A stretch of 55,797 nucleotides of DNA from Asterionella formosa (taxonomy: Eukaryota): NCBI GenBank assembly GCA_002256025.1, contig NKIB01013547.1, forward strand, positions 1-55,797, given 5' to 3'. Below, in pieces: positions 1 to 49,688 of the stretch (its first letter is position 1; each line of letters opens with the position of its first letter). The position numbers were made by a program, and so were the translations under genes. The notes under the pieces were generated by a model. That model worked only from the letters and a program-made list of their open reading frames with translations. It was not told where the DNA came from and did not search any database.

Positions 1-269
1 GTGGGCGATGGTCATATGAATCCATGTGTGCCATGTTGGTGAAATGTGGGTTTGATGACATGTTGATTGTGGCGAAATCCGAGATTATTTGTTGTTGTTG
101 TTCTCGACAGTGTGGTCCCCTGGTACCTGGTACCTGGTACCAGAGTACCGTATAGCTATTGTTGTATCCATGTATGATATACTGGTAAATGATGCGTCCT
201 ATATGTACTGATTCTACGATGATAATAATTGGGTTTCTAGTGACTACATTCAAAGTAGTCAATATGGAA

Positions 270-473
270 TCCTACGTTTAGGTAACTTTTGGAAGAAAAA
301 AACCTAAACGTAATGCGTTTGGGTAACTTATTGGGATACCGGGTATGGGCACAGAATCCCCTAAACGTAATGCGTTTGCGTTGGGTTTTTCACTCCCGTT
401 AGCATCGTTTTTTAGGGTTACCGAAACCCAAACACTGTTTGGTTTGCGTTTTGGTCCACCGTTAGCAACGGCC
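270..473. mobile_element. Probable right end of a PIF/Harbinger-like TIR element with subterminal repeats
   Basis: Repeated AAACGTAATGCGTTT and CCGTTAGCA motifs end in ...CCGTTAGCAACGGCC followed by TAA. The partner end is not visible. Confidence 0.35.
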
Positions 474-870
474 TAAATACTGGTATATTATCAACCAAAA
501 ATATGATCGTACCTGGTACCAGGTACTTATGTTGTCCGGCTCATTATAGTCGGAGTAGCAAAGTATAATGTGTGGTTGATGAGAGCTTGGTACATCAAAG
601 TGGACTCATTCGAATCGTTTGACTCCGAGTCCTAACTACGTATTGAGCTCACTTCAACAAACATAGACATACAGTAGGCAACTTACAAACTCAAACAACG
701 AAGGTGCAAAATAGAATTACTTACAAGTGAAACACCTGAAATATGATGACTTCCTATCAGGGGAATGGCTAGAGCTATGGTCTAATCGCTGAATGAATAT
801 GTCGAACAAGAAAACAGGTAAAGCACTCTTTACTAGCTGTTTAAGTATGAAACACATTACCCCCGAGACT

Positions 871-2522
871 TCATTCCTTAGACTTTTTCTTCTTTTTCTC
901 TGACTTCTTCTCCTTCTTTTCCTTTTTCTCCTTCTTTGGGATTTCCTCATTGTCCTCCGAAGATTTCTTAGTCTTCTTGCTAGATTTCACTTCTATTTCT
1001 TCATCCACGAAATCGTCTTTACCTTTTCGCTTCTTGTCAGACTTTTTGTCTTTCTTCGATTTGGGAGTTTTCACCTCCGCCATGTCGTCGTCGTCGTCGT
1101 CAAGGTCGTCTCCCCTGGCAGCCTTCAATTCCTTGGCAACCTCCGTCATGACGTCAATATTTTTTCGGGGAGCAGCACCCGTCTCATAAAATTTGAGACG
1201 CTCCTCGACCTGATCTCTTAGTTTTTCTCCATAAAGACGGCTTGGCTCATCACTGAAGGAATCGATGCGAGTGGCAATGGAGCATTTGTTGGCCAAATAT
1301 CTGGAAATACGGCCCTTGTTTTTGGCGTCAGCACGACCAATAAATGTGGAGTGGTAGATTAAACCATACTTGGGAGTGTTCCCCTTGGTCTTGAGTGCTC
1401 GGAATAGGGCCTTCTCTGCGCCCAAGATTTGGACTGTTGAAGCTGGTGCCTTGGCTAAGTTGGTCAAAGAACCAGCCTACCGGTAGTCGTAGTTGAGTGG
1501 TGAGAAAAAAGTCTAACCGCCCTGAAACTAATGTGTCCAATTCTCGTTCTTACCTTGCTGATCAATCGCGCAGCGACAGTATCACCAATAAGTGCACTCA
1601 GGTTAGGCGCAACCAGGTTCATCTTGTCAGAAAGGTACAGTGACAATTGCTTTCTGTACTCAGCGAGCTTCACCATTCGCTGAGTGAAATTAACAATGTT
1701 GACCATGTCAACGCTGCTGCAATCCATACCCATACTTGTCTTTGCTGCAGCAACAACGGCGTTGGCCATATCGTCGTCCCCAATAATCTCCTTCAAGCCC
1801 TCCAGTTTGGCGGCGTCGTCCTTCGTCAACGTGACCTTATCCTGAATGAACGCAGCAGAACGGGCAAACATGTAATTGTCCTTGACGATGCCCTTGAGCT
1901 CCGGAAAGTGCCAACTGTACCACTCCCGCACACGCATAGCGAAGGTATTGAGATCCTTGTCCATCTGATCCAAAAGAGCGATAGACTGAATGATCATGTT
2001 GTCCGAACGCGCAGGGTTGAACTTGACCTTGGAACGACTGTACGAGTGACCTAAACCAAGTTGTGCCTTTTCGGCAGCACCTCCAGCCAATCCCTTCACG
2101 AATACATCAAGATGTTGACGACATCCTCTGGCGATCTCCCGGATGGTATCATCACTTCGGCAAGAGACACCTGACAACCCGTCACTAATTGCAGTAGCCA
2201 GTGCCGGGTCAATTACGCCGAGAGTGAATTCGGCTGTTTTGCTCTTCTTCGAAACCTTGGGAAGGTTCATTTCCAAAAAATTATGAAGGGATCCTGTCAT
2301 GGCATGTTCCGAAATAGCGTTGGCGTTCTCAAGCGCATCTTGAGCGCTCTCGAAGGGTTGAAAACCCTTGAGCTTCAGTGCTCGACCGAAGCGTTCAATA
2401 TCAGTTACGGTGTCCATTGCGCCTTCGAGAAGGTTACCGATCTCCTCGAAGGCAACAACTTCGAAAAGAGCGTAACCAGCGGCACATTCTAGCAGAGTAA
2501 ACAACGTCTTGGAGTCCGCCAT
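871..2522 (-). CDS. NOP56: Nucleolar protein 56 (box C/D snoRNP core); 2 exons, intron 1477-1553
   Basis: Motifs [49 protein letters not shown] and [17 protein letters not shown], plus a KKE-rich tail. A GT-AG intron joins ...RLISK|AGSLTNL in frame. Confidence 0.96.
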
Positions 2523-2786
2523 AGTTGTTCTGATGGTAGGACTTGTAACAGCGTCTGATTTTCTTGACAACAACAAAATAATTTTCCAACATACATACCG
2601 GTATGGTTCCTATCCTCGATCAATGCATACAGCCAATATTTGTTGTACCAGGTACCTGGTAGTGCCTCGTCGTTACATTGGGAGGCTGTTTCCGCGTCCG
2701 ACCAAAATAATCAATGGTCGGCATCAGGCGCGCACGTTGGCACGAGACAATTACCGGTACCTGGTACCTGGTACCAGGCGTACCTG

Positions 2787-3435
2787 CAAGTTGCGGTCAT
2801 TTTGCTTAAGGTTCCTGCATTCAACCCTAAGCCAAAAATTAAAATATTGCTTAGGGTTGCCGAAATTCCCTGGAACTAAGAATTTATAGGAGCTATTTTT
2901 GAATGACATGATTCCGTTTGAAATATTCAAATCAGTGGAAATTTGTGCGTACGTACATAGATTGCTGGGTCTGAAGCCGATTTACCGGTAGATACATAGG
3001 TAACCTTCAAATAGCATCAGTATATAACTTCTGGCGAGAAATTGCAGAAAGGAACTTCGGTTTTTTAAATATGCCAAATAAAGTGATTTCCCCCGAAATT
3101 TCCAGTCTTTATAGCATAGTTAAAAAACCGAAGTTCCTTTCTGCAGTTTCTCGCCAGATCCTATATCCTGACAATATATAGCATTGACCTGTGCCCCTAC
3201 TTTTGTCAATGACTGTATCTAAGCAAATGAAAAGGGTGTATATTGGTGAAAGCTCCGTTTAGCGATACACATTTAAGTTTTACTCGTAAGAAGTGTGTGT
3301 TTGAGTACTCTGACTCAATATATTTTTTTGACCCTACCTCTAAACTAGGGTTGAAATGCAGGAACCTTAAACTAACATTTCAATCTGGGATAAAGATAGC
3401 TAAATCTTTAGTTTCAGCAAAAGTACCGCAACTTG
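2787..3435. mobile_element. ~88-bp MITE (TIR CAAGTTGCGGT.ATTTTGCT) interrupted by a 557-bp insertion
   Basis: Same termini and core as the uninterrupted copies at 7228-7315 and 8490-8576. CTG flanks both sides of this copy. Confidence 0.8.
2810..3366. mobile_element. Non-autonomous TIR element with TTAA target duplication (Kolobok/piggyBac-type target)
   Basis: Left end GGTTCCTGCATTCAACCCTA, right end TAGGGTTGAAATGCAGGAACC. TTAA at 2806-2809 and 3367-3370. A second partial copy lies at ~11279-11640. Confidence 0.85.
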
Positions 3436-3744
3436 CTGGGTACCTGGAACATGGTAGAAATAGCAAGCATGCAATGTTGAGAAAGGGATTCAGTGATTGT
3501 TCTTGTGCTTGCTTGATAAGCAACTGCCAGCAAGGAGAGAAAGATTGAAATATTGTGAAACAATGTACCGGTAATGAGATGCCGTTTGTCAAAATTCCGC
3601 CAGATAAATATTGTCAACAAGCCCAATAACCCATTTACCGTACCTGGTACCAGTACCGGTAGTACATTGGAGTCTGGAGAACCAGGGTACCAAAGATACA
3701 ACTCCCAATCACAGTCATTTCAAGGGCCTTCTAAGTTGAAAATT

Positions 3745-5222: not shown

Positions 5223-7012
5223 GGAAGATCCGGTTGCGCACGTTCTATGCGCACCTTCCAGTTTCGACGCACTCCCAAGAGATCGTCTCATGCCTGCTGA
5301 ACAAGATAGACTGGGATTTCATTCCTAACTCTCTTAAGTAACTTTCTTCAATGTTGAATTATCATTCATCAAAATCCCAAGTCGACACATTCTGATACTC
5401 AAAATCGTGTTCACCTACTCCTACTGGTAATGGTATTCAACAACTGGATGACAGTTTGCTAATTCTGGAATTCACCAATCAATAACTTCTAGTCATAGTC
5501 AGCAGTTTCTAGCTAGTTGTAGTCAGCACTTTCTATTCAGTCAGCAAATTCTTGTTGCCGTCAGCAGATTTCTAGTCTCATGTGGTTATAGGTCAGCAAC
5601 CATAAACAAAGAGTCAGCCATTTGAAAATGTCAATGGACTATTAATCAACATTACTTAAATAGAGAATCAAACCAAAAATTTCTTTCGGCCTACAGATTA
5701 CCGTAGTTGAGCGTGCTGCATACTGTAAAAGTGTCAAATCTGTTCATAACTTCGTTGTTTTGAATTGTGCATCATCTAAACTAGTACGTGAAGCAATGCA
5801 CCATCGCCGTTTCAATTTTCGTTGTCATATTAGTGTTAGTATTACAATTATTTTTTAACGATTGTATTATCCATGTTGGCTGTGTTAGATATTTTTAGAG
5901 AATAACATAGCGATTTATTCATTTTCCATGGAGAAATTCAATATTTTCGACATGGTCAAGGCGGAGACGGCATGATGCAGGATTCTCTTGCTGCACACAA
6001 GAGCTACACTGTAGCATTTAATACACAGAAAGGAATCTCAAAATCTAGGCTAATGAATTATATACTAGCGTCTACAAGGGCTACCTTGGGTACCAGGTTG
6101 TCAGGATCTAGATTACTATAGGCCTCTTCCACAAGGGTCTGGTGGTCCATTGCTGCTGGAAAATAGCTTTCCGGACCCTCCGGGTGCGTAACTCCCGGTT
6201 GGTGCATGGATCGGTGCAAGTTTAATATGCTCCTGCAACATCGCATTTGCCATACGACTCCTGCTACCCACATCACAACGTAGGTATAGATGCAGTTCCT
6301 CCATAATGGCAACGTACCTGATAGACCTAGACCTGGAGGTAGTCTCAGCCTATCACACAAAGGGGGATTGCTCCCCGCAAGGTTTTGTGTGACCCCGCCC
6401 CTGATCAGGCAGTGAGTCTATTACAGTGGTTGGGATCACTGGTACTTCCATTCGCTTGCCCGTAGGAGCTACATGCCAATGTACTATGTGTACCTGACAC
6501 AGGTACACTCAAAATATATATCCTATGTAGTAATGGTAAATATGTGATAATTGATATGTATGATATTGCAAATACGGTAGTATATATAGCGGTACCCTGG
6601 TAGTTTGTTGCATCTGGAATGATAATGACTGTGACAATGTACTGGTATTTAGATATGACATTACATATGCTTAGTATCTGTAGTGTTGGCAAGGCTCTCA
6701 AGAGGGAGTAGTGGTTGTGCTCGTTCATGAATATACTTCATAGGAATAAGGGTCGTTCAGACAATCTATTCTTATTCGCAAGTTCTAGTCGTTATCAGCA
6801 AATTCTAGTCATAGTCAGCAGTTTCTAGTCGTGGTCAGCAAGTTCTAAACATAGAAAGGTAGGATTCCTATATTTTTCCGAAGCTAGAAGACGGTTTGCT
6901 GAAAAATGTTCATCACTCAGCAAATCTGGCCTATCTAGTCCGGCAGGCATGAGACAATCCTTTGGGAGTGAAACTGATAGTTGCGCATAGAACATGCGCT
7001 ACCGGACCTTCC
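5223..7012. mobile_element. ~1.4-1.8 kb non-autonomous element with ~75-bp TIRs and internal 20-bp tandem repeats (copy A)
   Basis: GGAAG(A/G)TCCGGT.GCGCA.GTTCTATGCGCA... occurs at both ends in inverted orientation. The interior is homologous to 18860-20387, 10340-10990, 32420-33400 and 50425-50820. Confidence 0.85.
6099..6499. mobile_element. Solo LTR (401 bp) inserted in copy A
   Basis: TGTCAGG...CCTGACA termini with a 5-bp TSD CAGGT (6094-6098, 6500-6504). The segment is absent from the other copies of the host element. Confidence 0.85.
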
Positions 7013-7227: not shown

Positions 7228-7315
7228 CAAGTTGTGGTAATTTTGCTGAAACTAAATATTTAGCTTTCATTATCCTATATTAAATTGTTTATTTAAGCAA
7301 AATGACCGCAACTTG
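7228..7315. mobile_element. ~88-bp MITE, empty-site copy in reverse orientation
   Basis: TIRs CAAGTTGTGGTAATTTTGCT and AGCAAAATGACCGCAACTTG. Confidence 0.8.
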
Positions 7316-8229: not shown

Positions 8230-8489
8230 CTTAGCTTTCTTGCGCTTTCAATTAAGTGTCTTCCTTTCAATGCAAATTGACTTTTAGATTGGTTCAATCT
8301 TTGTTCTTGTGCTCAAAACAATCGAGGTACTTCGGACCCACTTCATATCGTTCTATGGTTTTACCAGTACCTGGTCCCTGGTCCCTGGTACACCTGATAC
8401 CTGATACCAGGTACCAGGTACCGCTGGTTCGAGTGTTCATATGTCGTGGGTTTTCTCACATATGTATATACCGTACTCCGGAGTACCAG

Positions 8490-8576
8490 CAAGTTGCGGT
8501 CATTTTGCTTTTATCAACAATTTAATCTCGGATAAAGGAAGCTAAATCTTTAGTTCAGCAAACCTACCGCAACTTG
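8490..8576. mobile_element. ~88-bp MITE, third copy
   Basis: CAAGTTGCGGTCATTTTGCT...AGCAAACCTACCGCAACTTG. Confidence 0.8.
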
Positions 8577-10339
8577 CGCCCCGCAGGTACCGGTATTACC
8601 TGTTTGTACAAGGTACCGGTAGTCGAGTACCTGGTACCAGGTACCCCATGCTGTACCGGCACCCTGGTACCAGGTACCAGATAGTTAGGACTGCTAGTAG
8701 TTGTTGGCTATATATAGTAGTGCTGCGCACAAAGCAACGTAAAAATCCTGTGTGCCTCGTGTAACTTTCAGATTTGTGTATGTAAAACATAAAAAATACA
8801 TGGAAGTGGACTTTTCTTAATCAATGGCTAATAATTGTCTTTTGTTTTAATATATGTATAATTAGTAGACTAAATCAAATCAAATCAAATCAAAATAACC
8901 AGAGGCTAATTGTACAAATGCACCTTTTTTTCAAGTTGAGCCTCCTTCTTGGCAAGAGGTACCAGAAAGCAGGAAAACATATCACCCAGAATGGCCAATT
9001 TGTCATCATTGTAACTTGGAGAAATAGAAATGAGTTTAGTATCATGACACGTTAGCTCAGTAGTGGATTCATTCTCATTCTCATCCTCACTTCCATTAAA
9101 TTCGTCATCATACAAGCTAAAAAAAAGTACTTGTTACTCTCCAACAAGGAAGCTGGGGGGTGTATCTGTAGATTTCTTGAGCTTCGGCTTGATAGACCAA
9201 TGTCAGCTACCTGTGACAGGATGCTGGGTAGATTGATGGGCTCACCTTGCATCTTCATTGTGTTCTGCTCTTTTCTCTTCAATAGCAAGGTCATATTTCT
9301 GTATACTTACATCGGTGATGAAATCACTGGTGAGGAAGAGCGGGCAATCCAAGCGAAGATGGATAGTGAGAACGCTCCAGGCACAATTTTGTTGTAGCAT
9401 ACCCATAAGGGTACATTTCCGGAAATTCGGCTCAAGCACTTGTTAATCACCATGTTAGTAGGAGTGCTAGCTATGGTTTGGAAATGCTACACAGCTCCAG
9501 TGATGCCAAAAACGGTGCATGAATATTCAACGATATGTATTGTCTTTGTTGCATTTGATAATGTCAAGATTGAAGCAGAACCTGAAGAAATTAGTTTGCT
9601 TTTATTCTAATCGATATATGACGTAGTAGCTTATATTGCTACTAATCAACCTGTAAAATAATCTGTAAATAAACTAAATAATAAATCGTAAATTGTCAAT
9701 CATAAATCGTAACACATTGATTTTATGTTAATACTTAATGATATTGAATCGTAAATCGTAAACCCTAATTAATGCTGAAATAATCTATGTCGAAATAAAA
9801 TGCAGCTGCATGGATATGGATTTTGCAATATAGAATTTTAAAAGGGGTGAAAGAAGGAGGAAGACTGATCTTTTGAATATATTAAGCTACTAGCCCTTGT
9901 TGGCGCTTATATAAAATTAGTCAGCTGACATCCTTTGTGAATACAATTCCTGTTAGATTTAAATTTTAACAGGTTGTGATCCAAATGTTATGGATTATGC
10001 AAAAAAATTTATGTGGAGAATATTTTTGAAATCAAGTGAAAATACTGCCTACTAGGTTCTGACTTCTTTACACAGATCACTTTATGTTAACGTAAAAAGT
10101 TGTACAATCACATTATGATTTTTATGTGTCGGCTTTTGTTCTTGCCATTAGCATATCAACAGTCAACCTTGCCATCGATATTGTCCAATTGTTCACTCAT
10201 TTGAATTCCGATTTCAACTCTTTAACAAATCTTCTATGAGCTCAAGAGTATTATATCGACTACAAAATGTTTGTGATGAATCATTGCAGCGAAGACAGTG
10301 GCTGAAAGTACATTTTTCACGACTTCCATTTTACATATA

Positions 10340-12799: not shown

Positions 12800-13780
12800 C
12801 CTTCCGAAAGGAGCGCTCCACTTTTTGAAGTAAATGACATTTCTCTCGAAGGTGGAAAGGTTATCAACTCAATTAAATGGCTTTATCTTTGATACCTGTC
12901 TTGTTTCAGGGAGAGAGACAAGGTCTAGTCGGTTCAATTCTAGAACACTCGTTGTACTCACAGCAAAAATAAAGCAGCAAGACTAGATTATTTTATATGT
13001 TTGGATAAAGAGTAAGAAGTACAAGACGCAATAGGTTTTCGACTTGTTGGATTTTTTAATTCTTCTCAAGATGACCTTTCTTACTGGACAGCCATGGGAT
13101 ATGTCGTTATCGTTTTCTCTTTGTGACTTCGAATTGGTTCTCGACTCCGGAGCGCAGCACGTTTGGGTATTTGAAGCGCAGTGGCTACCGTATTCAATAC
13201 TCCCAACTCCAACCAGGCATATGTTGATTCTACGACAGAGATTGTGACCAGTTTCTCGCATCGGCTCAAACTATTCTCCAGGTAATGGGTTCGCCCATCA
13301 CTCGTAGGTAAAGAAATCCAGGACCAAGCCAACAAAATCTGCAGTTGACCAATTGGTGTGTAGTTTTCGGTTTGTGGATCCTTCTTAAAATATCATACAA
13401 TACATGAGAAGAAGACGTAATTCCAAGCATGAATTCTAGCAAACCACCTTTGCTGACAGATCTCGTTTATCATAAAAGCTAGTCGATTACCGGTATTCCT
13501 CCTCGTGGTGTTGATAGTCGACCAACTGTTACCAGGTCATTTTGCATTTTTTACTTGTAAATAAATGTTTCGTTGTATTGCATCAATTCCTTTCCCTAAT
13601 GTCTTAAAACGATTGCAGACGCAGATGTTCAAAAGGAACGTGATGATGAAATATAGTCCATGACGACCACACAAGTTGAAACACTACTACGATTTGTTTG
13701 CGCCACATAGCTCGACGACTACTTATTCACACTATGTTTTGCAACAATTCGTCGTCCCCGTGACACTTTTCAATATTCAA

Positions 13781-14767
13781 TTAAGATTCATACCGTTGAA
13801 AGTTGTCATAACCTCGCTGTTTGGGAGCTGCATTGGCATCTCGCTTTTCCCATTGGCCTTTTGCCTTATTGGTTGATTTCTTTGGATTACTTCGTGTCTT
13901 GGGCGAAGTTGTGCCCACTGTTCGAGTGACTTCTCCGCTAGATGCCGCAATCGACATAACGTCCTTGGCGTCAAAAACCAAAATATTCTTGTCTGACACT
14001 CCTGATCTTCCAAGCAACTCTTCGATTGACACATCAGCTCTTGCCCTGTACTTGACATCATCGTCAATATCTCCTCCAATAATGTACAGCAGCTTTCCAG
14101 ACTCCTGGTTTATCAGCTGAGTGATCCAGAAACAAAATTTCGGTATCGATGTCACGCTCCGCCCCACAACAAGGTCATATGCACCTTTGTGTTTTCTGCC
14201 TTCCAACGCATCATTCACTATTTCTTCAGCTCTCCCATGATGCACGTGAACATTGTCCAACCCTAACTCTTCTGCCATTGCTTCGACAGCCTTCAACTTC
14301 TTGCCGACACTATCCACCAACAAAAAGTCCACATTTGGCATAGCGATGGCCAAAGGTAACCCAGGAAATCCCCCACCAGTTCCTACGTCGACAACGCGGC
14401 GTTCTGGGCAAAACTCTTTCATACCCAACATGGCGATAGACGGCAGAATATGTCGACCAAAAATGACTTTGTCAGTGCAGTCTTTGCGAGAAACAAGATT
14501 GATGCGATCGTTCCAGGCCACCACCATTTCCGAGAGGTCGGCCAGTTTGCTGTGTTGAGAAGAGGTCAAGCCTAGTTTGGCTGTCAGGATCTTGGCTTCG
14601 TCGCAGTAAGGGTCCATCGCAAAGTTGACGGATGTGCTGGAGGGCTGTTCATCATGATGTCTTGATGATTGTAGGATCAGGGAATGGCTAGAGCAATACG
14701 CGGGATATTGAAAGGCTGATGACGCTCTGGCCAGGAGACAAAGTGGACGCATGTAACCAGCTCTCAT
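13781..14767 (-). CDS. rsmG: 16S rRNA m7G527 methyltransferase RsmG/GidB, probably plastid-targeted
   Basis: WNDRINLVSR, RHILPS, VVDVGTGGGFPGLPLAI, LVDSVGKK and HGRAEE motifs. The N-terminal LCLLARASSAF resembles the diatom ASAF cleavage motif. Confidence 0.92.
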   Translation of the reverse strand: MRAGYMRPLCLLARASSAFQYPAYCSSHSLILQSSRHHDEQPSSTSVNFAMDPYCDEAKILTAKLGLTSSQHSKLADLSEMVVAWNDRINLVSRKDCTDKVIFGRHILPSIAMLGMKEFCPERRVVDVGTGGGFPGLPLAIAMPNVDFLLVDSVGKKLKAVEAMAEELGLDNVHVHHGRAEEIVNDALEGRKHKGAYDLVVGRSVTSIPKFCFWITQLINQESGKLLYIIGGDIDDDVKYRARADVSIEELLGRSGVSDKNILVFDAKDVMSIAASSGEVTRTVGTTSPKTRSNPKKSTNKAKGQWEKRDANAAPKQRGYDNFQRYES

Positions 14768-15296
14768 TGTAGTGAACTGAGCTGTGAAAATGAGATGCAC
14801 CTTCCTCTTTCATTCGTTGTACCAGGTACATGGTACCTGGTACCTAGTATCAGTAATCACCAGGTAGACTACGGTAGCTGTCTGCCAAAAACAGAGAAAA
14901 ATCCCCATGTAACATTTGCACGAAAATTTCAAAGGACAAATAAAATTGATGGAGAGGAATAAAAAAGCTATGACATTTATTTCCAACATTTATATACCGG
15001 TATCATACACATAATAGCTAGTATCTTAGCATAAAAAGTATCTGGTACCATGGTTGTTTTAACAAGAAAAGGAATACAAAGAATAAAACGGTATTTCATT
15101 CTAGCATTCCGGTACGTGTAACAATTGATTCCTGATATACAAATGTACCCGAGTATCACATGATCTATTTTATACTCTAGCGGTACCAGGTAGTATGTAC
15201 GAGCAGCATAGCAGTGGTCTACTGGTACAAAATAGTGCTACATGTATCCGGCTGCCACCATTGCACGCAACCAAAAAATACTCCTACTGTGTTAAT

Positions 15297-16370
15297 GGGC
15301 GCGCTCTGATAATAAAAAATTATTATATCATGTGTATTATAACACAAATCGTTGTACCCATAACCCCAAAATTTGTGTTTGTGTTGACCAAATTTGGTAA
15401 ACCTGGTAAGCACCTCGTTACAGTTATAAATAACAGTGCATTATATAAAAAGATGTTTAGACATGAATGACTTTATAGAATTTCCCGGAATATTTCAAGA
15501 CTTGCTTGCTCATACTCAAAATGGCTTGCTCTTGCCAAAATAGGTATGCATATACTTATGCATAGTATCGTTACATATCAATCAACCTCCTCAATAAATC
15601 GATCGTCATCGCTTTAAGATTTCGGCCATGTCTTCATCTTCTTCTGGTCAAAGGAGAGCAGCCAGGGAGGGCTTCCCTTCCTCTCCAAGGCTGCTTGAAC
15701 GTCGCCATCACCAGCAACAAGAACAACAACAGACTCAACCAGAAGAAGAGGAGGACGACGACGACGAGAATGAAGATGACACTGGTGCTGATGAGTTTGC
15801 CAGTGACGATCATGACAGTAGGATGGGTGTCCCAGGTGTTTCTCAGATTGGTGTTTCTGGGGTTACTCAGTCCCCATCAAGGAACAACAACGATTTTTCA
15901 CGTGCTCCTACTAGTTCAGTTTCAAGAATGGCAACTGCCAGGCGAGAACCAACGTTTCCAAGAGCTCACCGAAGCATGCATCAACAGTCAAACTTTCCCT
16001 GAACAATGGCGTCCGGCGTCCTATTTACTGGTGGATAGCACATTGCTAACAGTAGCAATGTGATCATAATGTCATCATCATCATCATCAGGAGATGAGAT
16101 GAAAGTCGACATGGTCAGTGACCGACGATGATGAATGTATAGAACTCATGCATATAATGAACAAGAGGCGGCATAGCATACAAGAGGATGCATCGATATG
16201 AAAATTTAACTGTTGAAAATTAAAGTTAAAAATATTTATAATGTCAGAGAAGTAATCTAAAATATCTCTATTATCAGAGCGCAAGGACAATATTATGTAG
16301 CAGATAACCAGAATAATTTGTGTTATAAGACACACATGATATAATAATTTTTTCTTATCAGAGCGCGCCC
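15297..16370. mobile_element. PIF/Harbinger-like deletion derivative with ~55-bp TIRs and 3-bp TSD; carries ORF 15628-16002
   Basis: GGGCGCGCTCTGATAA.AAAAAATTATTATATCATGTGT is inverted at both ends, with AAT on both flanks. Confidence 0.85.
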
Positions 16371-17399
16371 AATATCTGCATATGATGCTCCATACATGCG
16401 CCGTACAAACCATACTGGCGCAGCCACCAGATTAGGTACATGCGTGAGTGCCAACAACGATGTACTCGCAACAGCAATAGAATAGTCATAATATTGTAGT
16501 TCAACTTTATTCACGACAAGGTTCCCCTCAACATACTTTACTACCGGTATGTATGTACCGGTGGTAATCAGTATTCCCTATGTATAAGCAAGAAGAGGTA
16601 CCTTGTAGCTGGAACCGTACCAGGTTCATGCCGGTAGGCTAGTCCCACATCCTTATACCCACCAGAGAACCAGGTACCTGGTACGTTCGCAGAATGTATC
16701 GATAATTTTGTTGGGCCTTGCATTTATAAAACCGGTACTGTATTATTGTCCATGTAAAAATAACGAATGGCTGACATTGACATTGGGTCGGTTCCAGCAA
16801 ACAGGTGGGCCTAGCAGTCAACCGTACTACCTGGTTACCTGGAAACAGAGAGTACCTTGTACTGGTATCACATGAGCCGAATGTATGTACGATATTACCA
16901 CAAGGGAGGTACCTGGTACCAGGGTACCCATAAACGTCATTGTCCTGGCTTTCTGTAATTAAATTATTAGGATCTAAACAAATTACCGGGTATTCGAAAC
17001 CAATGAAACATACATACATGCATTCCATACATGCACATATCGCCAAATGCTGTTTTAGATTGACCGGCCACTCAAATATTTGCGGGAAGCCGAATGCAAC
17101 ATCATGTAGCTTTTTTTCAGAAAATCATTCTTCAAAATTAGAGTTTGATGATATTGAAATTAATTGGCCATCGCGAAACCGTTGGAAATTTCTAAATGTC
17201 AAGGTGGTAATTTCACAGGAGGAGTCGAATTTGAGTGCCTGCTGGCGCCGCATTTACAATTCGACAAAATGACCACAACTTGCAGGTAATAGGTACCCTG
17301 GTACTGTATTGCAAACACATAGATACCGGTAGCTACATGCTGCACCATGCATGCACAACAGGAGATTGTGAACAAGCAAACAAACGTTTTGCTTCCTTG

Positions 17400-18260: not shown

Positions 18261-18352
18261 AGGCATAGTAAGTGAAAATCGAAAAAGCCAAAAAAATTTG
18301 AAATGTAATTGCCAATTTTAAATTAAATACATTTATATTATAATTTGATCTG

Positions 18353-18427
18353 AGGGAATGGCTTAGTGGTTTAGCACGTTGCCTTTGATCCTCTTAGGTT
18401 TTGATGTTCGATTCCGGCAATTTTTTT
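18353..18427 (+). pseudogene. tRNA-like (Gln-TTG-like) Pol III unit or SINE-like head
   Basis: A-box TGGCTTAGTGG (18359-18369), CTTTGA anticodon-like loop, B-box GTTCGATTCC (18406-18415) and a T7 terminator. The stems do not pair as a proper tRNA. Confidence 0.5.
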
Positions 18428-31900: not shown

Positions 31901-32419
31901 GCGCTTAACAAATGCGGTTATCAATGCATACACATATCGCCTTGAATGCCAATACAGTGTGGAGTGCCAATATTAGATCGTTGGTGCTGATGTGCATCAA
32001 TCATGGAAGGAAGCAAGGTGATGAGACAACTGTTGATTTGCACTATATGTTCCATCATCCTGGGGGTATATGCAGTCTCTTGGCTGGCACTAGCAGTTAA
32101 AGACTGTAAGCCACCGTTATGAAGACTTCTAGACTGGTCTGTAAACCACCGCTAAACGGAGTAAACGCATGGTTTGAACTTCTTTTGCAAAATACGCTAA
32201 ATATTTTTACGGAATAGTTGTTGAGTTTAAATAGCCAGTAAATATGAATGTGCTTGTATTGCAGCATTTTGTAGCTTGTTAGTTGCTCATTATGTCCCTA
32301 AGGTTGCTATCTATGGGAAATTGCGAAAAACAGATTTTTCACATTAACTCTATTGAGCAGGCATCACCTTTTCTATATACTTACTCAACACAACAAATAT
32401 AACTAAATATTCTTCCTCG

Positions 32420-33400
32420 TTTTTGCGGTCTTTTTCAATTTCGACTCACTCCCAATGATTCGTCCCATCCTACCGGAAGGGTTATGATGGCTTTCCATTC
32501 CAAACTCTCTTAAGAAACTTTCTATGCCTTTAAATTATCATTCAGTAAACCCAAGTCCTCATGTTCTGATCATCGAAATCGTGTTCAACTTCTTCTACAA
32601 ATGATAGTATTCAGAGACTGGAAGATGTTTTGGTTATAGAGTTCACAAATTGCTCAAGTAACTTCTAGTCGTAGTCAGCAAATTCTAATCGTAGTACCAG
32701 TCAGCGAATTCAAGTCCTTGTCAGCAAATTTCTATTCATATGTAGTCAACAGCTGGCTCAGTAGTACTCGTAAACAAAAGAGTCATTTTGAAAATGTCAA
32801 TGGAATATTAATTGATATTGTTGTTAAATAGACAATCAAACAAATTTTGGTTCGCCCTAGTACTGATTACCGTTGAGTGGAGTGTTGCATGCTGTGAAAG
32901 TGTTAAATCTCGGCCGTCGCAACTTCGACAGTTTGAATCGTGCATCGCTAAAACTATGTGAAGAAATGCGCGATCAGCGACTTCAATTTCCGTTTTCAAT
33001 AATGCTGTTATTACAATTATTTTTTTACGATTGTATTTTCGATGTTGTGTTAGATATACTAGTTACCAAGAAATAGCTTAGTGTCGATTTGATTTTTTAT
33101 GGAGATATTTGTTATTTTCGTCATGGTCAAGGCAGCGATGCCATGATGGAGTATTCTCCAGCCGCTCACAATGACTACACTGTAGTGTCTTTAGATAGGA
33201 ACAAATCGCAGCATCTAGTAGGCTAAAAATTTATATACAAGTGTCTAGCTACAAGGGCTAGCTACTTTGGGAACCCTGAGCATATCATTTATCCCAGCCA
33301 TAGTAAGTAATACTTGATATGTATAATATTGCAAATATAGCGGTATCCCGGTGGTGGTAGGCTGTTGCATCAGGCGTGATAACGACTTTGACCATGTATA
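32420..33400 (+). mobile_element. Partial copy C of the long-TIR family
   Basis: Colinear similarity to 5250-6090 and 6500-6650, including the 20-bp array. It lacks the solo LTR. Confidence 0.8.
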
Positions 33401-35100: not shown

Positions 35101-36007
35101 ACATAGCATTTGATGTGGTGGTGGGTCGCTTCTTTTGGTGAATTTTTGTTTGTTGTTGCTCTCAATTGATGTTCATAATTGAGTCGGAACCCCTACTAGC
35201 TCTTAGCAGTAGTTATCACGCATGTAGCTATTGTCAACATAAATCCTACTACGATAGTACAAATTGGACGCTGTTTATGTATGGTTTTGGGGAGAAAAGT
35301 CTCCCAAAAAGCCGCTGCTGACAGGGCCGCAGAACATTTACGTCTCATAAGCTTGCGGGGAATAAACATCAGCGTGAAAAAAAGGGGAGAATTTCTCCTA
35401 AAAAATGTAGGATAATCTCTCATCCATTCTCCCCATTTTTCCACACTTCTGTACCACAGGAATTGTATATTTAGGCCACCATTTATAAATAGGGATGCAT
35501 GCTGCCCACAGAAAAATTCTGATTCCCTTTTCAGCTGCCGGGATTGACATTTGCGAGGAATGCGGGTTCTGTTCTCTGTATACCCCACGTTACACCACAT
35601 ACCGGTATTCCGGTCTGTCGTAACATGCATTTATTGAAGAACGAGTACATACATTGCTTTTATGCATCATAATATTCATACCGGTATATGACAAAAACCA
35701 AAAACGAGTACCTGGCGCCTGTATGTGCATATATATGATATCCCTGTATGTGCATGAAAAGTTAAACAATGCATAAACCGGTGCGTTGTACCTGCTACCT
35801 GGTGGTACTTGGTACTTGTACCAGGTACTGTTACTCCCTGGTATTTTTTAAATAAACCCTTAACAGGTACTCGCAGTAGTAACAGGTACCGGTACCAGGG
35901 TCCTGCACTTGGTACATAACGACCAGATTGCATGCATCGCGAAAGCCAGCATGCAGGGAGCAGAAATGAATCACACAACGACAGGAAGCAATTGTTGCAG
36001 CTCGGGC

Positions 36008-38359: not shown

Positions 38360-40367
38360 CCTAATTTTCGAATGGCAATTGAGGATGTGTGATGAGTGTG
38401 TTGCAATATAATGGGGAGTGAAATCAATTGCTTCAACACCAAAATTCCTCACGGTGCTTTTGGAAACGATCATGTCATTAGTGATGGAAATTCGAACTAC
38501 CAGTACCGGTATCTGTTACGTCATATCGTATCTGATGAAATCCAAATCAGCGGATTTTACCTACACATGGAGCAGTCCTCGTGATGGATGGAAAATTTTG
38601 CACCGGGATGTCGTGTCTACCTACGGGAACGTAATGTGCTGCGTAGGCCATTTGTTATTTAGTTGCGCAGTTACACATCGCGAGGTCTGTAGTGTGCCAA
38701 AAAATTAATCCAAACATTGCGTAAAACTAAATAAAATAGTTCGGGTAAAATTAGCTTTCACCAATGCGCCCACTTTGCATATGCTTAGATACAGTCATTG
38801 CTCGACTTAGGCATATGTTCTCTATTCAAATATGGAAGAAACCTCATTTCTGGAGAGAAACTGCAGTAATGTTTCTCTTGTATTATACATTGAAAGTATT
38901 TATATATCAATCGCTATTATAACTTGAATGAAATGATGATAATTATGCTTTATCTATTGATCTGTATTTTATGATTGATACATTTGCGTTCTTTGTTTCT
39001 ACCCTACAATCCAATGACTTTGTATTCCATTGAGCGCCTTTGATCCTAAGCATTGCAACCGAAATTACCGAAACAAGATCAAGTATTGATTCATTCACGA
39101 ATTCTGGTAGAACAGGAATGATTCAATGTGTGAGCCAAATAGTTGAATACACATTCAGCATTTCCCCTCAATTGTGCATAGCATCCTACATTCTCTGTAA
39201 TCCATGTGTCATTCTTCCTGAAAGCTATGTGATGAGCAAGTAAGTTTCAGGTATTTGAAACATGAACGATTGCACATCAAAATGATCAACATTTATTTTG
39301 ATTTACCTCTTCCCCAGGTTGATTGTTTATTTTGTTGTGGTCGTCTGCAGCAAACAGTGGAAGCCAGAAGTCAGAACTTGTACCATTGAACTATTCATTT
39401 GTACACACATATATCTAAAGCAATTCAACGACCATTTGTTGACTCACAAATATTTGTGAAACGAATTGCTGATTATCCATTCAGCATGACTCTTTATGGT
39501 GGCAAGAACTTAAATCTCGAAATATCAAGCATGATTGTTCCTGAAAGCGATAAACTTGATGGGCTAGTAAGTTCTAATGCTGCGACCATATATAAGTGCA
39601 ATTTGTTTTACTAACCTCGTCCTCATGTTGACTGTTCTTGTTGTTCTTTTTATTTGTAGTAGCCACTGACTGTGCTGACAAGTCAGAACTCGATAATAGG
39701 CATATATCAAGCAAGAAGCAGTGAATCAACCATATTACTCACTTATTTGCAGCGACAATAGATGGATTCGATTCCGCAATCATTTCTATACCATAACATC
39801 GTCAATATTCACTTTCTTCTTTCAACAAAGTCAAATAAGACAAGTACATCTACCGTGCTTTTATTTGTTTCTATTTCTCCGGTACTTAGGGCGTGGTACT
39901 TGGCGAATTGGTAAGGATTCTGGGATTCCCGAAAATGGACGTTTTTGCGGAAACGAGCATGACTTTATAATTATGCAATCTTTTTCAAAATAGAAGAAAG
40001 GTTTAGATCTTCCGAAGGGTCAGCTATCGATTCCGCACTTTAAATTCCCTTTTCGAAGAAAATGGAGGACACACGAATTTTTGTCCCAAGAGTGTGCTGA
40101 ACCTGTCAGGTCAACTCTACTCGTCCCTCTGTTCAACTATAGTTGCAACAATTCTTTTCTAGGCCTCCTCGATCTACTTTTGTACTTTGTCGGAGAATAG
40201 TCAACATACTGTACTTCATATGTTTGCTGGCATTATAGATGGGCTGATACTGTTTGTTACCAGCCAGTATATAATTTTGGAACAACGTTTGGCATCATGC
40301 TGGAATCGAATATCCATTAGGAATTGATTTTCCTTTTCGAGTTCATGACCCACATACATAGGGAGTA

Positions 40368-41628
40368 CTCCCTCTGTTCCGGTACAGTTGCAACACTCTC
40401 AGCAACTAACCCGGCTAAATCCATGTCCTTCAAAGAAGCCCTCTGTAGAAGCAATGTGCAATTTCTACGCAAGACGATGCAGGCTACGGGTACTACGTTG
40501 GTTAGATTAGTATATTGAGGCAAGCATAACACTAAATAGCAATCCATGTGCTTTGTTTAGGGCTATTGAATTTACTTAAATTTCGCTAGCCAGCATAGCT
40601 GTTTTGCTCTACATGGAGTGGTATGCAATATTCAAGATTGGCTTACTTGTATCTCGGTCTCACAACAGCACTTATTAACATGACTTTTTGAATATGAGAC
40701 TTGTGACTAAAACATTCCTTTCTGGTGGCACCTCATCTTAAGAGCTAAATATATGAGAAGCCTTTGATGCAAAGAACCATTTTGTATATATGGATATCAT
40801 GATAGAAGTGATCAAAGAAACCAAACTTACTGGGATCAAACAGTTCATGATTCATTTGAACAGGGTGGTTTAATTGCAAATGATTAATAGCATAAAACAC
40901 AAGATTCACAGCATTGTTGGGTGTTAGCAATGGTTTGATTGCATTAGTGTGAGGCTGTATCACTTCTATCTTGGTTGAACAGGTGTAAAAAAAGAGAGTA
41001 GTGACTGGGAGTCCAAGCTTCTTCCCTAATGTGCAGTAAGCTCATTGCTGATGGTGAGGAATCAACTTGACAGCTGCTATAATATCATCAGGAGAATATT
41101 TAATATCTCCACCACTCTTATACTTCCGGGACAGAGCCTTGTATGATTCACTATCCCATTCGTGAACAATTCGAGCGCACGCTTCCAGATGCGATAAATT
41201 GTGATTCTACTGACGTCGAATTTTCTAGCCAACTGGAGGTGAACATCCGGATTTACTATGAGCCAGTCGTCAATTTCGTTGCCTCCGATCTCGTCCCTTT
41301 TGAGGCTTCGAAGCAAACAATCGATGATGTAGTGTCGCTGTTCTGGTGTCAAATCCTTCTTTTTATGCCTATTGACTAATAACGAAGGGTCAACGAAAAA
41401 GGGGGGTGGTCCCGAGCAAACATTCCAATTGGGGTGCGATTCTACGAAAACTGCGCCAAAAGAACCCGAAGTCAGGTTCACCTAATTGTAGACTATTTAG
41501 ATAATGCTCGGAATAATTTTTGCTACCAGTACTGGACGGAGAATTTTTGGAGGTTGCCCTTCATATGAGGCAGTGAACTAAAGCTTGGTTGCAACGTTGC
41601 AACTACGTATATACCGGAACAGAGGGAG
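40368..41628 (-). mobile_element. Internally decayed plant-type mariner with intact Stowaway-like TIRs and TA TSD
   Basis: TA|CTCCCTCTGTTCCGG...CCGGAACAGAGGGAG|TA. Inside are DLTPEQRHYII, LARKFDVSRITIYRIWKRA (HTH) and FYHDIHI. A related ~245-bp MITE abuts it at ~40121-40365. Confidence 0.85.
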
Positions 41629-41784
41629 TACCAGGCATCATAGCTACCGGTACTTTTCCCCATGATAGCGTCTAAGATTTTTTTGAATGTGATTTGCTGC
41701 GTTTGTTGAACTGACAACACATCCTAAATCTTAGCACACGACATATTTAGTTCCAGGGTACCCTTCCTTGCTCTCAACAAGATC

Positions 41785-43999
41785 ATGTCAGGATACGACT
41801 TCGCAACAATTGGTGGGCCGCCAGACCCAATCTCCCTTTTGCGACAGCTCACTGTTTCCGACTCGAGTATCCCGGTAGAACCGGCAAATGGAATTGACGA
41901 TGGAGGGAAGCATCAAGAGCCTCCTGCTCGTTGCCGTCCGGAGGTACGCAATTACACTGGCATCCGTTTGGACACTTTCCCGCGCTAACACATTTGTCAG
42001 AATGGACTTTGGCCACATCGCGACATGTTGTCCTTTACTCGATCCTTGATTTTCTATGGTGCTGGCACTGTGACAGACGAAAATGTACAGGCGTGCCAGC
42101 ATATTCAAGAAGCAAGAGCCATGAGACAGAAATATTTTGGTAGAAAAGGGATGTCAGCCGGCATGGACATTCTCAAACAGAATCATGGACTGACTTTTGC
42201 CTTTGGAACAAATGGTGTTGTGGAGATTTTTCATCAAAGCGGGCCCTATACTACCAAAAATCTATGTCCAGTTCCCAGTATTGATGAATTTCACAAAGAT
42301 TACAAGCGCTTTGTACATATGCTGAATGACGGCGCCATGAGATCGTTTTGTTTCCAGCGGCTACAGTTGTTATCAAGTGCATTCAAAATGCATGTCACGG
42401 CTAATGGAGCAATGGAAAGTCAAGAGCAAAGTCAGCTGCTTGGAACCGATTTTTACCGGACCATGAAGGTCGACAATCATATTCATGCCGCTGCCGCTCC
42501 GAGTGTGAAGCATTTTGTTAACTTTGTAAGGAACAAGTTGGAGAATGAAGGAGATGTCGTGGTGTCAGAAAATGGAAAAACTCTCGTGGAGATATTCAGT
42601 GATGCTGGTATGGATTCTGATCATCTGACTATAGATGCATTTAATGTATTGGCTGATTACTCGGTCTATCAACGATTTGACAACTTCAACACAAAGTACA
42701 GTCCCTTTCGAATGGCTGATATGCGAAGAATCTTTCTGAAGACTACCAATCACATGGATGGCAAGTATTTTGCTGAACTCCTTAAGGGCGTCTTTGCTCG
42801 CCACGAATCATCGAAAGGACATAAATCCGCGGTTGAGATGAGATTAAGTATTTACGGTATGGAACGTCACGAGTGGTTGGACCTGGCAAAGTGGATGTTG
42901 CGTGATTGGGACGGGGACTACCCGGGTCCAGTTCTATCGTCTCATAATCGATGGTTGATCCAAATACCTCGACTTTGGCGTATCTACCGAGGCAAGGCGT
43001 CAGACCGGTCATTTCAAGAAATGATGGATAATCTATTTGTTCCCATTTTTGAGGCCACAATGTGTCCACAAGAACATCCTGAGGTGGCTGAATTATTGAA
43101 GAACATTGTTGGCTTTGATTCTGTTGATGACGAAGGAGCACACGAAGAAAACTGTAGCAATGAGCGTCCTACCAAATGGACGCAAGAAAGCAATCCGGCT
43201 TACTGGTGGCAGCTCTATTATATTTGGGCGAATTTGGAAGTCTTGAACCAGCTACGAATTGCAAAGGGCTTGAACCCCTTGGCGTTCAGGCCTCATGCTG
43301 GTGAGACGGGAGACCCAATGCATCTCGCGGCCACTTATCTACTTTGCCCATCTATCAATCACGGCATTAATTTGCACAGTCAGGTTTCTCTTCAATATCT
43401 ATACTATCTGGATCAGGTTAGTTGAAACATTTATTGTTTTCACCATGTTTCAACTTTTAATTCTGACTTTTTCTCCTTAGGTTGGTCTTTCTTTGTCTCC
43501 CTTGTCAAATAATTTTCTCTTCCGAAAGATTGCTACGAACCCATTTCCAAAATTCTTTCGCCGTGGCCTAAATGTTACCCTTTCCACGGATGATCCCCTC
43601 CTTTTTCACATGTCTGATGATGCCTTGCTGGAAGAATATGCCGTAGCTAGAGCGTCGTTTGATCTATCCATGACGGATGTTGCTGAAATCGCCAGAAACT
43701 CTATCCTTCAATGCGGTTTCGAAGATTCGCTGAAGAAGGAATGGCTCGGTGAAGAATACGCTCGAGGGGTTACGTTTTGCGATGAGAGAAAGACACATGT
43801 TCCATTGATTCGTGCTAAATATAGAGCAGAGCATCTTGCCATCGAACACATGTTAGTGCACCTGATCGGGGCTGGAAAGGGAGATGCTGTTCTTGACGAA
43901 ATGAAGGTTCAGTTTGGCTTGGCTCGCGACGCTCATCGAAATGTCTTGTTTGACAATATTGAGGATGTACCCTCCTTCCCAGAACAAGGGCAGCTCTAG
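41785..43999 (+). CDS. AMPD: AMP deaminase; introns 41944-42000 and 43417-43480
   Basis: KVDNHIHAAA, RFDNFNTKY, GFDSVDDE, FRPHAGETG, HGINL, SPLSNNFLF and LSTDDPL. Confidence 0.96.
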
Positions 44000-46938: not shown

Positions 46939-47347
46939 TCGAGGCGCGACGGAAAAAGCGATCGATTCGAATCAGAGCCAGCACAGCGCTAATCGATGTC
47001 AATTGCTCGACTAGAAACGCAGACTCAGACTCAGACTCAGACTCTGCTCACTTGTTTTGTTCAATTCGATGAAGCAACAAATGAAATTGATTGTGGCGGG
47101 TATATGTATATATATATATGAACACAAAGGAAGTGAAGAAGAGGTGGCAACGAAGTATCGTTTACGAAGATAAGCCTTCACTTAAAAAAGCGTGGCAAGT
47201 AGAGTTGCGCTATGTTGACAAGCGTGCGAGCAACACAAACATCGAAAACGTCGTTTGAATTTGAGTTCAGAAGCGAGACCACCAACGGTGGACGCGAGCC
47301 AACGGCATTGCATCCTTGATTAAGTAATCAAAACAGCTAAACTTTTG

Positions 47348-47926
47348 NNNNNNNNNNNNNNNNNNNNNNNNNNNNNNNNNNNNNNNNNNNNNNNNNNNNN
47401 NNNNNNNNNNNNNNNNNNNNNNNNNNNNNNNNNNNNNNNNNNNNNNNNNNNNNNNNNNNNNNNNNNNNNNNNNNNNNNNNNNNNNNNNNNNNNNNNNNNN
47501 NNNNNNNNNNNNNNNNNNNNNNNNNNNNNNNNNNNNNNNNNNNNNNNNNNNNNNNNNNNNNNNNNNNNNNNNNNNNNNNNNNNNNNNNNNNNNNNNNNNN
47601 NNNNNNNNNNNNNNNNNNNNNNNNNNNNNNNNNNNNNNNNNNNNNNNNNNNNNNNNNNNNNNNNNNNNNNNNNNNNNNNNNNNNNNNNNNNNNNNNNNNN
47701 NNNNNNNNNNNNNNNNNNNNNNNNNNNNNNNNNNNNNNNNNNNNNNNNNNNNNNNNNNNNNNNNNNNNNNNNNNNNNNNNNNNNNNNNNNNNNNNNNNNN
47801 NNNNNNNNNNNNNNNNNNNNNNNNNNNNNNNNNNNNNNNNNNNNNNNNNNNNNNNNNNNNNNNNNNNNNNNNNNNNNNNNNNNNNNNNNNNNNNNNNNNN
47901 NNNNNNNNNNNNNNNNNNNNNNNNNN
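47348..47926. other. Assembly gap (N run)
   Basis: 579 consecutive N. Confidence 1.
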
Positions 47927-48002
47927 AAAAAAGGGCACTGGTACCAGTGCATAGTCAAGACTAAGCGGAGTGCCTGGTTACATGGTACCCCTGGTACCAG
48001 TA

Positions 48003-49688
48003 CCGTATACCGTACTTCAGTGTCCTGGACCCCCCTGTGGTTGCTGTAGTACCCCCCTGTACATTTTTCTCAAGGGGGTGGTCGTAATAAAAGGCCCCGT
48101 CTTACGTTGCCCGAATTACGAAGATTGAGTCGCCCGGATAACCTGTTGCGCGTTTAATCTTCTTATTTTCGTCCCTTACGGGCTAATTAACTCGCAAATC
48201 CCCCCGATTACGAAGATAAATCTTCGTTCGCCCGAATATTTCGAGGGTCATCCCCGATATTGACCCAATCTTCGTATTTTCTTGAACAATCTTCGTTTCC
48301 CGAAGATTAATATTCGGGCAAACGAAGATTGTCTCCACCAATCAGAATGGCGGAAACAATATATAATTGTCATCACATATACTGATGATATAGTATTTGA
48401 TACTTCTTTTGTAGTTTTATAGTCATTATTATTACATATTAAAATATAATTATCCTTACTTTGAATATTTTTTTATGATTTAAAAAATTTGTAACATGAC
48501 GACTCCGCCAATGCTATCATCAACCTTCCTGGCACATTATCAACAGTGTGTACAGGCATGGAAGCGACAATGGTTGTCATGGCAACTACCAGCTGCCTTG
48601 CCAGCTGCGTTGCGAAATGAGCTGGTTTCTCAGTTTCATTTGAAAGTTCAATCTGAATGAGGGAATCAGCAATCGCCATCCAGCAACATCTGCTAATCAA
48701 AAAAGAATGAAAAGACCTCTGAGTCATCATTGTGATGGTAGGGAGATACTGGTGGTGGGAGAGGAGAAAGGAGATAGGCCGATGTGAAGGCCAATCACCT
48801 TGCTTACAACAACAGCAACGACAATGATGGAGCATTGAGTGTTGACGATTTTCATTATAATTAATTACCATAATATTCCTACGGACAAGACTACCAATTT
48901 TCATGTAGGAATACATTTCAATTCACGAGATCGGTCGTTTGACGCATGGATTGACGCATTATTTAATCTTTGGGACCGTAAGGTGGCCAAAAAATTTCCC
49001 GAATACGAAGATCGAAGATTTTGCTGCGATAGTTTCGCAATATTCGATCTTCGTATTTCGGGCACTGCAAGTTTCAGCCTAAGCACCCAATAATTTTCTA
49101 GACTTGGACAAATTAAAGCAAGTGCTTTAATTCTGTTGGCACTCGTATGTAGGCTTGGGAAGATAATTTTATTTAGCTGAAAAATGCGATTCTTTTTTAA
49201 ATACTAGTATATAAAAACACAACAGTATACCAGTGGTGGTTGTGAGCAGCCGGAGAATCCTGCATCATGTCATCTCTGCCTTGACCATGACGAAAATAAT
49301 GAATCTGTTCATGACAACTGAGAACAACTCTTGCTTTGCTATTTGGTACACATATCAAGAACAATATAGAAAATACAATTGTAAAAGAACTATTTTAATA
49401 ATAACACTAATGTTGACAATGAATATTGAAGTCACCGATAGCAGCCATGGTGATGTCGCATCTTTTTGGAAGGTGAATAACTTTCTCAGTTTTCACTTTA
49501 CAGAAGTAGTGAACATATTAATAAATATTAGAATGAAATGCGCCATCCTTAGAACTTATAAGATTTCCTTAGGTCTATTACAAGGGAAATCTCAACATAT
49601 TCCTGGAGCCCCTTAAGTTAAATCAGTCAAATTCAGTCATGGCAGGAGTGTACATTGCGGGGTCCAGCCAGGACACTGAATTATATGG
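48003..49688. mobile_element. TA-flanked TIR element (CC(G/A)TATA..TTCAGTGTCCTGG..CCCC) containing nested repeats
   Basis: Inverted termini at 48003-48035 and 49659-49688 with TA outside both. The interior has ACGAAGAT-rich repeats and a fragment of the long-TIR family (~49205-49460). Confidence 0.6.

Follow-up and report, generated by a model that had tools for sequence, protein, structure and literature searches.

The stretch of Asterionella formosa DNA analysed here (contig NKIB01013547.1, 55,797 nucleotides, referred to as the window) carries many short units that begin with C, end with G and are framed by TA on both sides. These units are probably excision scars of TA-duplicating transposons of the IS630-Tc1-mariner/pogo type, and at least two different elements would have left them. 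Naming each unit by the bases between its TAs, there are two classes: CCG, CCGG and CCSGG, which hardly stack, and CCWGG, which forms stacks. The window is a gene-dense eukaryotic contig with Nop, WD40, GidB, aminotransferase, PhyH, polo-box and MCM genes. It comes from a fragmented 68 Mb genome assembly of 15,436 contigs, and the sequencing runs that contain its DNA are chiefly freshwater or algal metagenomes.

There are 100 exact units in the window (1.8 per kb) and 15 stacks of 2-6 exact units each (Table 1). TACCWGGTA is present 29 times compared with a mean of 0.23 in shuffled sequence, and none of 100 shuffles scored as high; TACCGGTA is present 26 times (shuffle mean 0.21). A second-order Markov model predicts 2.2 occurrences of TACCAGTA/TACTGGTA and 4.6 of TACCGTA/TACGGTA, and there are 23 and 15, respectively. 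Over 625 kb, made up of the window and additional loci, Markov expectations were exceeded by CCGG (227 observed, 6.0 expected), CCWGG (285, 6.5), CCAG plus CTGG (197, 27), CCG plus CGG (130, 49), CCAGGG plus CCCTGG (45, 1.2) and CCSGG (23, 2.2). Triple CCWGG arrays gave 406 exact matches across the genome and the control gave none. The arrays and strings described in an earlier reading of this DNA, made without database searches (the sequence-only reading), are all present, including the clusters at 20398-20460 and 20578-20620.

Comparison of repeat copies shows where units are gained. An all-against-all alignment of 269 sequences (910 kb) yielded 1,955 distinct non-tandem indels of 3-16 bases. 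Of 168 non-tandem indels of 6 bases, 45 have the form TA to TA-X-TA, where X is CCGG in 19 and CCAG or CTGG in nine, which bears out the earlier claim that indels between repeat copies are anchored at TA. The TA-anchored indels also include five CCSGG at 7 bases and five CCG at 5 bases. In a stricter, polarised set, four of ten six-base gains (absent from most homologues) are CCGG, two of these four probably being one site. Only 14 of 279 CCGG units repeat their own flank in tandem, and 19 of 20 CCGG gains are non-tandem. Within the first repeat of Table 1, a copy of the miniature inverted-repeat transposable element (MITE) M1, a nested repeat has a TA-CCGG-TA insert at 2983-2990 that is absent from 22 of 37 homologues.

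The site at 19208-19215, in a copy of a second MITE (M2), is stack growth at one homologous TA. Sixteen M2 copies have there a plain or mutated TA (nine copies), CCGG (three), CCAG with one or two extra units (two) or other inserts (two), and two further copies have CCWGG-containing stacks at the homologous position. The sequence-only reading had seen a unit added at this site in one window copy of M2 relative to another. The gain at TA is real, but it is inherited in a subfamily and not private to that copy. C-to-T changes at CpG reach 7.5% compared with 1.6-1.9% elsewhere, so CCAG and CTGG can be decayed CCGG, and CCAG does stand in place of CCGG at a homologous site in M2 copies.

A profile search of the genome with PF03184 gave 93 matches. 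One pogo (DDE_1) family has TA|CCGTAAAACCTGG tips and nine copies that are 99.4-100% identical over ~1,955 bases, have different flanks and are cut at a contig end. One copy (L101) is complete, with perfect 21-base terminal inverted repeats (TIRs), a TA duplication and an open reading frame (ORF) of 406 residues. Its DDE_1 domain (E 1e-21) has a D-D spacing of 35 (DD35D), which identifies it as pogo; a BrkDBD match is weak (E 0.006, below the cut-off). A second family (B) has TA|CCGTATACTTCA tips and includes the decayed copy at 48003-49688, and a third has CAGT tips. The TA|CCGT tips of two resident pogo families match the inner bases of the CCG, CCGG and CCSGG scars. The targets agree as well: none of 44 pogo ends lies beside a unit, suggesting insertion at any TA, and the base left of TA is G at similar frequencies, 13 of 44 for pogo ends and 126 of 425 for unstacked CCGG sides (p=1.0). 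CCGG is next to CCGG in one of 216 adjacent unit pairs. Excision of Tc1/mariner-type elements is described as leaving the first or last 2-4 element bases between TAs (PMC6943129). Taken together, the data make it likely that CCG, CCGG and CCSGG are excision footprints. The L101 family resembles Passer in its DD35D spacing, short TIRs and TA duplication, and footprints of 0-4 bases are reported for Passer excision (PMC9976928); L101 is a candidate member of the Passer clade only. For the family B copy the sequence-only reading had proposed a unit gain in the left TIR. The copy does have 5 extra bases relative to the family tip, but a 7-base slip of the tip explains them equally well.

The CCWGG units differ from this class in context. 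They sit at G|TA..TA|C, with G left of TA at 275 of 382 unstacked sides (p=5e-34), and the pogo target context does not match this (p=6e-8). A neighbouring unit is present on 188 of 570 CCWGG sides compared with 29 of 454 CCGG sides. The CCGT-ended pogo alone cannot explain the stacks, since CCGT tips could not yield CCWGG, the unit of which the stacks consist. The sequence-only reading had proposed one very active CC...GG-ended element. A young, TA-duplicating, CCGT-ended pogo exists, but the differences in flank context and stacking between CCGG with pogo and CCWGG rule out a single element for all units.

Neighbouring CCWGG units have the same orientation in 43 cases and are inverted in 46, in agreement with the mixed orientation reported earlier. 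As a control, 43 bacterial loci with the identical 7-mer gave 116 same and nine inverted (p=2e-13). These loci (L344-L386, many of them from Gemmatimonadota, Acidimicrobiia and Planctomycetota) carry uniform, apparently intergenic (GGTACCW)n repeats; viral contigs gave 0 matches. In A. formosa W is not copied from the flanking base (91:79) and flips between homologues in two of 51 units, which is the background rate. Slippage predicts that neighbours share orientation, which holds only in some long runs and not overall, and that a new unit copies adjacent bases, which holds neither for CCGG nor for isolated CCWGG (72 of 370 tandem-compatible, about chance level). Three other origins were rejected. 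Pure fold-back copying predicts inverted neighbours and is unsupported by the 43:46 ratio; hairpin-loop flips would have to randomise W, and only the two units flip; CpG decay of CCSGG would also yield the sister products CCCAG and CTGGG, of which there are only five against 285 CCWGG. The best reading of CCWGG is that these units are excision footprints too, although we would give it about an even chance.

The footprint spectrum (CCWGG 285, CCAGGG/CCCTGG 45, CCCAGG/CCTGGG 1) indicates what the tips of such an element would be: the ratio of 45 to 1 argues for CCAG and not CCTG. Searches with the Pfam profiles PF13358 (Tc1) and PF01359 (mariner) gave no match, PF01359 being uninformative as it matched no control either, and four more distant DD39D loci had no usable tips.

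Another family uses the stacks as a target. A DD39D mariner family with CTCC-type tips (CTCCCTCTGTCTAGTAACAG) has 60 exact ends genome-wide, and its spacing of 39, CTCCCTC tips and TA duplication are Stowaway-like (Stowaway tip consensus CTCCCTCCRT, PMC1925063). The ends were selected on TA and tip only, and the flank consensus is T44 A40 C35 C40 W50 G45 G47 of 52 ends. TACCWGG is exact at 23 of 56 ends and within one mismatch at 39 of 56, a match that is found at 1.3% of all TA and at 43% of GGTACC sites (39 of 56 compared with the latter, p=2e-4). As 39 of the 56 ends adjoin a CCWGG unit, the stacks are true insertion hotspots. Duplication of the 9-base unit on insertion was rejected, since the flank units of 12 scorable paired ends are direct in seven and inverted in five. 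A sister DD39D family prefers TATG|TA. A GG|TA|CC preference thus exists among resident mariners. The DD39D copies seen are broken; their ordinary scars are CTCC (30), CTCCG (15) and CTCCGAG (8), and there are five composite TA-CTCC-WGG-TA scars. A metagenome scan found 19 DD39D-like loci, with CTCC/CTACC-type tips where seen and none with CCWGG units.

M1 and M2 also sit in TAC-CWG-GTA, the M2 loci having been partly selected on that context. They were rejected as CC-tipped TA elements: the same W is found on both sides in direct orientation, so CWG is the duplication. By analogy both may be Harbinger-like. In addition to the copies in Table 1, M1 is found at 7228-7315 and M2 at 5224-7011, 32420-33394 and 50378-50819. 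Subterminal 20-base tandem repeats lie inside M2 copies at 19986-20123, 6778-6847 and 50478-50580.

Position relative to genes was counted with crude ORF models (46 single-copy ORFs of at least 200 residues). There are 40 CCWGG-type units in 19.4 kb upstream, two in 24.2 kb downstream and one in 44.6 kb inside (p=3e-12), and 21, seven and one CCGG units, respectively. For many of the stacks in the window an ATG follows at a distance of 25-500 bases. Units are thus enriched upstream of genes, as promoter elements would be, and this position is compatible with insertion into open chromatin or with later co-option.

The following steps would account for these data. Units are gained as TA to TA-X-TA, as is seen between repeat copies. 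The CCG overhangs of a CCGT-tipped pogo, excised from any TA, may be joined to give CCG, CCGG (by two-base pairing) or CCSGG, and CpG decay would convert some CCGG to CCAG or CTGG. A second element, lost or unassembled, would have had CCAG tips and a 4-base overhang; overhangs of 1-4 bases at excision are reported for Osmar5 and Ppmar2 (PMC9632168). In a Sleeping Beauty-like manner CAG would anneal on CAG with a central mismatch, giving CCAGG or CCTGG at random and CCAGGG/CCCTGG as a minor product. If this element preferred GG|TA|CC, its scar GG-TA-CCWGG-TA-CC would hold two new such sites, which would be sufficient reason for scars to stack. Stacks, located upstream of genes, strongly attract insertions of the DD39D family and the two CWG-duplicating MITEs, and slippage then extends some stacks.

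Several results weigh against this explanation. A TA element tipped with CCA, CCT or CCAG was not found when 881 kb of loci were scanned for tips recurring after TA (CCGT and CTCC tips were seen, and tips of the kind sought only in the CWG-duplicating MITEs), nor in 70 pogo loci or ~55 DD39D loci, the search for a CCAG-tipped element having sampled ~0.9 of 68 Mb. Of the intact CC...GG-ended TA element proposed earlier, only the CCGT-ended form (L101) is therefore at hand. No locus was seen in all three states, empty, filled and scarred, the contigs from four sequencing runs being swamped by paralogues. Most catalogued indels are unpolarised. The CpG step is weakened because homologues of TACCGGTA (not deduplicated) show CAGG 12 and CCTG 10 times compared with CTGG 14 and CCAG 9 times. 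Unit densities outside the window are biased, as the loci were chosen around repeats and 30 were picked by a pattern holding TACCWGG. The remaining points concern slippage. Contig C1127 has a uniform run of nine units, and 14 of 38 triple arrays (those among the first 100 of 812 entries) are uniform compared with 9.5 expected (p=0.07). Ten CCWGG array gains are absent from most homologues. Four of them are exact tandem duplications of 7 bases and a fifth combines a duplication with CpG decay; two others together represent a single non-tandem gain (two units), and the last three are ambiguous.

Slippage thus lengthens some CCWGG arrays, and the CTGG run at 20581-20606 looks like slippage. The earlier claim that the arrays are not slippage products stands for the random orientation of CCWGG and fails for such uniform runs. 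We consider it quite improbable that the whole is an ordinary heptamer/hexamer microsatellite, in which slippage duplications start from GGTACC and the units diversify through point mutation, CpG decay and hairpin-loop flips. The uniform runs and the four or five tandem-compatible gains out of ten agree with this, and the identical 7-mer does form tandem repeats in the bacterial loci. The first triplets there, however, are uniform in 38 of 43 loci compared with the 14 of 38 listed here (p=2e-6), and neither the W flips, the few decay products of CCSGG nor the non-tandem CCGG gains fit. Also improbable is that a transcription factor or chromatin protein binds the units as promoter elements and selection maintains them, with transposons following open chromatin. 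The 40/2/1 distribution of CCWGG favours it. TACCGGTA (M94) and TACATGTA (M93) are high-confidence promoter motifs in Phytophthora infestans, so the identical 8-mer is enriched upstream in another stramenopile; there they are read as factor-binding sites, apparently on the basis of over-representation, and the main text does not contain the word transposon (PMC3597505). Selection, however, has no means of creating six additional bases at a TA, units are also gained within dead copies of MITEs and pogo, and both the type and the orientation of units differ freely among stacks; a role in promoters could still have come by later co-option. On the pattern of Tc1 footprints, CC- and CA-tipped elements would be expected to leave the pair M93/M94.

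It is unlikely, in our judgement, that only the CCGG class arose as set out above and that CCWGG stacks grew at breaks made by the DD39D family. Here the mariner would land in GG|TA|CC and excise, and error-prone end-joining would copy a neighbouring unit, in direct or inverted orientation because GGTACC is self-complementary. The family, with its 60 ends, is almost only found beside CCWGG units, the composite TA-CTCC-WGG-TA scars are such as microhomology joining of CTCC overhangs would give, direct and inverted neighbours are equally common, and growth would need no CCAG-ended element. This leaves the first unit unexplained, however: of the 370 CCWGG units that stand alone, with both strands counted, 298 do not copy their flank, and one non-tandem gain matches neither flank. 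Additionally, CTCC-type scars are far rarer than CCWGG and the DD39D copies are broken. Excision scars of at least two elements probably account for both classes. The sequence-only reading named three outcomes that would speak against footprints, namely indels not anchored at a pre-existing TA, homogeneous slippage arrays, and no CC...GG-ended, TA-targeting element; none of these was found for the unit family as a whole.

Sleeping Beauty leaves TACAGTA and TACTGTA (PMC6943129), with TA on both sides, tip bases inside and two mirror products, to which CCAGG and CCTGG are a parallel. The difference is that here there are ~1-2 scars per kb, in stacks of up to nine and biased to gene fronts, and that the writer of CCWGG was not found. 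In an intron of the Triticeae beta-amylase gene a Stowaway element with CTCCCTC tips has re-inserted beside an older scar, and TIR fragments of 1-4 bases lie between TAs (PMC1925063). That is one locus with CTCC-type scars, in contrast with the hundreds of CC-type arrays described here, where the family with CTCC tips inserts at scars that cannot derive from its own tips. The bacterial loci, which we presume to be bacterial intergenic heptamer tandem repeats, have the same GGTACCW unit, but in uniform, isolated arrays without the excess of TA-CCGG-TA. Footprints are known chemistry; what is new is their density, their stacking in random orientation and their use as a target by another family. 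A literature search, with limited coverage of subscription journals, returned no account of stacked footprint arrays used as targets. We tentatively propose, as a possibility that is less than even, a self-amplifying scar satellite, in which the footprint regenerates two preferred targets, arrays are written before genes and serve as a shared landing pad for DD39D (16-base TACCWGG-TA-CCWGGTA) and the two MITEs, and some stramenopile promoter motifs (TACCGGTA, TACATGTA) would be scars.

Footprints are usually studied locus by locus. If the explanation is correct, then by extrapolation from this density the genome would preserve traces of tens of thousands of excisions, among them those of an element that can no longer be seen. 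Where a scar restores its own target, satellites would have a route to birth besides slippage, and mutation would be concentrated in promoters. The DD39D family would be a natural case of a mariner with an extended target preference, and caution is warranted because scars could be mistaken for factor-binding sites by motif finders.

Table 1. Stacks, transposon copies and related features of the window
Position	Strand	Feature
124-152		Stack of CCTGG, CCTGG, CCAGAG and CCG, with TAs shared between units
510-525		Two-unit CCWGG stack, inverted pair
2646-2782		Pair of stacks upstream (120-260 bases) of minus-strand Nop-domain gene (first ATG 2522)
2787-3435	+	MITE M1, TIR CAAGTTGCGG, CTG duplicated, in a TAC-CTG-GTA word
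3636-3661		Four-unit mixed stack of CCG, CCTGG, CCAG and CCGG
8368-8676		Dense stack cluster surrounding short M1 copy (8490-8576)
8474-8485		TA-CTCC-GGAG-TA, a classic scar of Stowaway/Osmar type with CCG and CCAG units chained to it
14820-14849		Degenerate CCWGG stack, ~50 bases upstream of GidB-like gene (ATG 14767, minus strand)
18861-20386	+	MITE M2 (long-TIR family of the sequence-only reading), TIR GAAGGTCCGG, CWG and not TA duplicated; inherited CCGG insert at 19208-19215
20398-20460		Mixed stack described in the sequence-only reading, 420-480 bases upstream of ORF (ATG 20878)
20549-20619		Longest stack: four uniform CTGG units (slippage-like), then CCGG and CCAGG
23403-23417		Two-unit stack, ~110 bases upstream of aminotransferase gene (ATG 23297, minus strand)
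29490-29559		Mixed stacks, ~500 bases upstream of ORF (ATG 28977, minus strand)
35806-35894		Degenerate stacks, 300-390 bases upstream of ORF (ATG 36196)
38498-38511		Two-unit stack, ~25 bases upstream of PhyH-like gene (ATG 38473, minus strand)
40366-41630	-	Deleted Stowaway-like mariner relic, TA|CTCCCTCTGTTC ends; right flank TA-CCAGG
41080-41481		134-residue helix-turn-helix remnant inside the mariner relic
47979-48002		Stack abutting pogo-type tip
48003-49688	+	Degenerate, non-coding pogo family B copy, tips CCGTATA/CCATATA, TA on both sides, left tip with 5 additional bases

Contigs from the sequencing runs over 13000-32300 (X2, X6, X7 and X9) are mainly paralogues; several long ones have a net difference of 6-7 bases that is unplaceable, and they are no evidence on strain polymorphism. 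Locus L051 (contig C12419) is near-identical to 39580-42981, the region of the mariner relic, and is possibly the other haplotype. Further near-identical pairs of loci are L034/L035, L027/L036, L038/L043 and L117/L127. An assembly gap of 579 bases (47348-47926) comes just ahead of 47979-48014, which holds the stack and the pogo tip.

The repeat at 24802-25225 has a very high copy number (~1,000 times single-copy depth) and ends in GCAATTCCCGCTCCAGC, read inward; several of its copies adjoin TACCG or TACYA. A high-copy MITE at 15297-16370 has GGGCGCGCTCTGAT tips and ANT-like 3-base flanks, and there is a decayed DD39D catalytic-domain fragment at 17530-17912. Finally, the commonest multi-base non-tandem TA-anchored indel is TA to TA-GC-TA (27 cases), and TA-C-TA/TA-G-TA are commoner still (67). 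TA-GC-TA sites are found in the window at 153, 3397, 5510, 9468, 10927 and 14 more positions, as well as in many loci; no GC-tipped element was seen. TAGCTA is frequent too beside DD39D-like elements in microbial-mat contigs (L328-L335).

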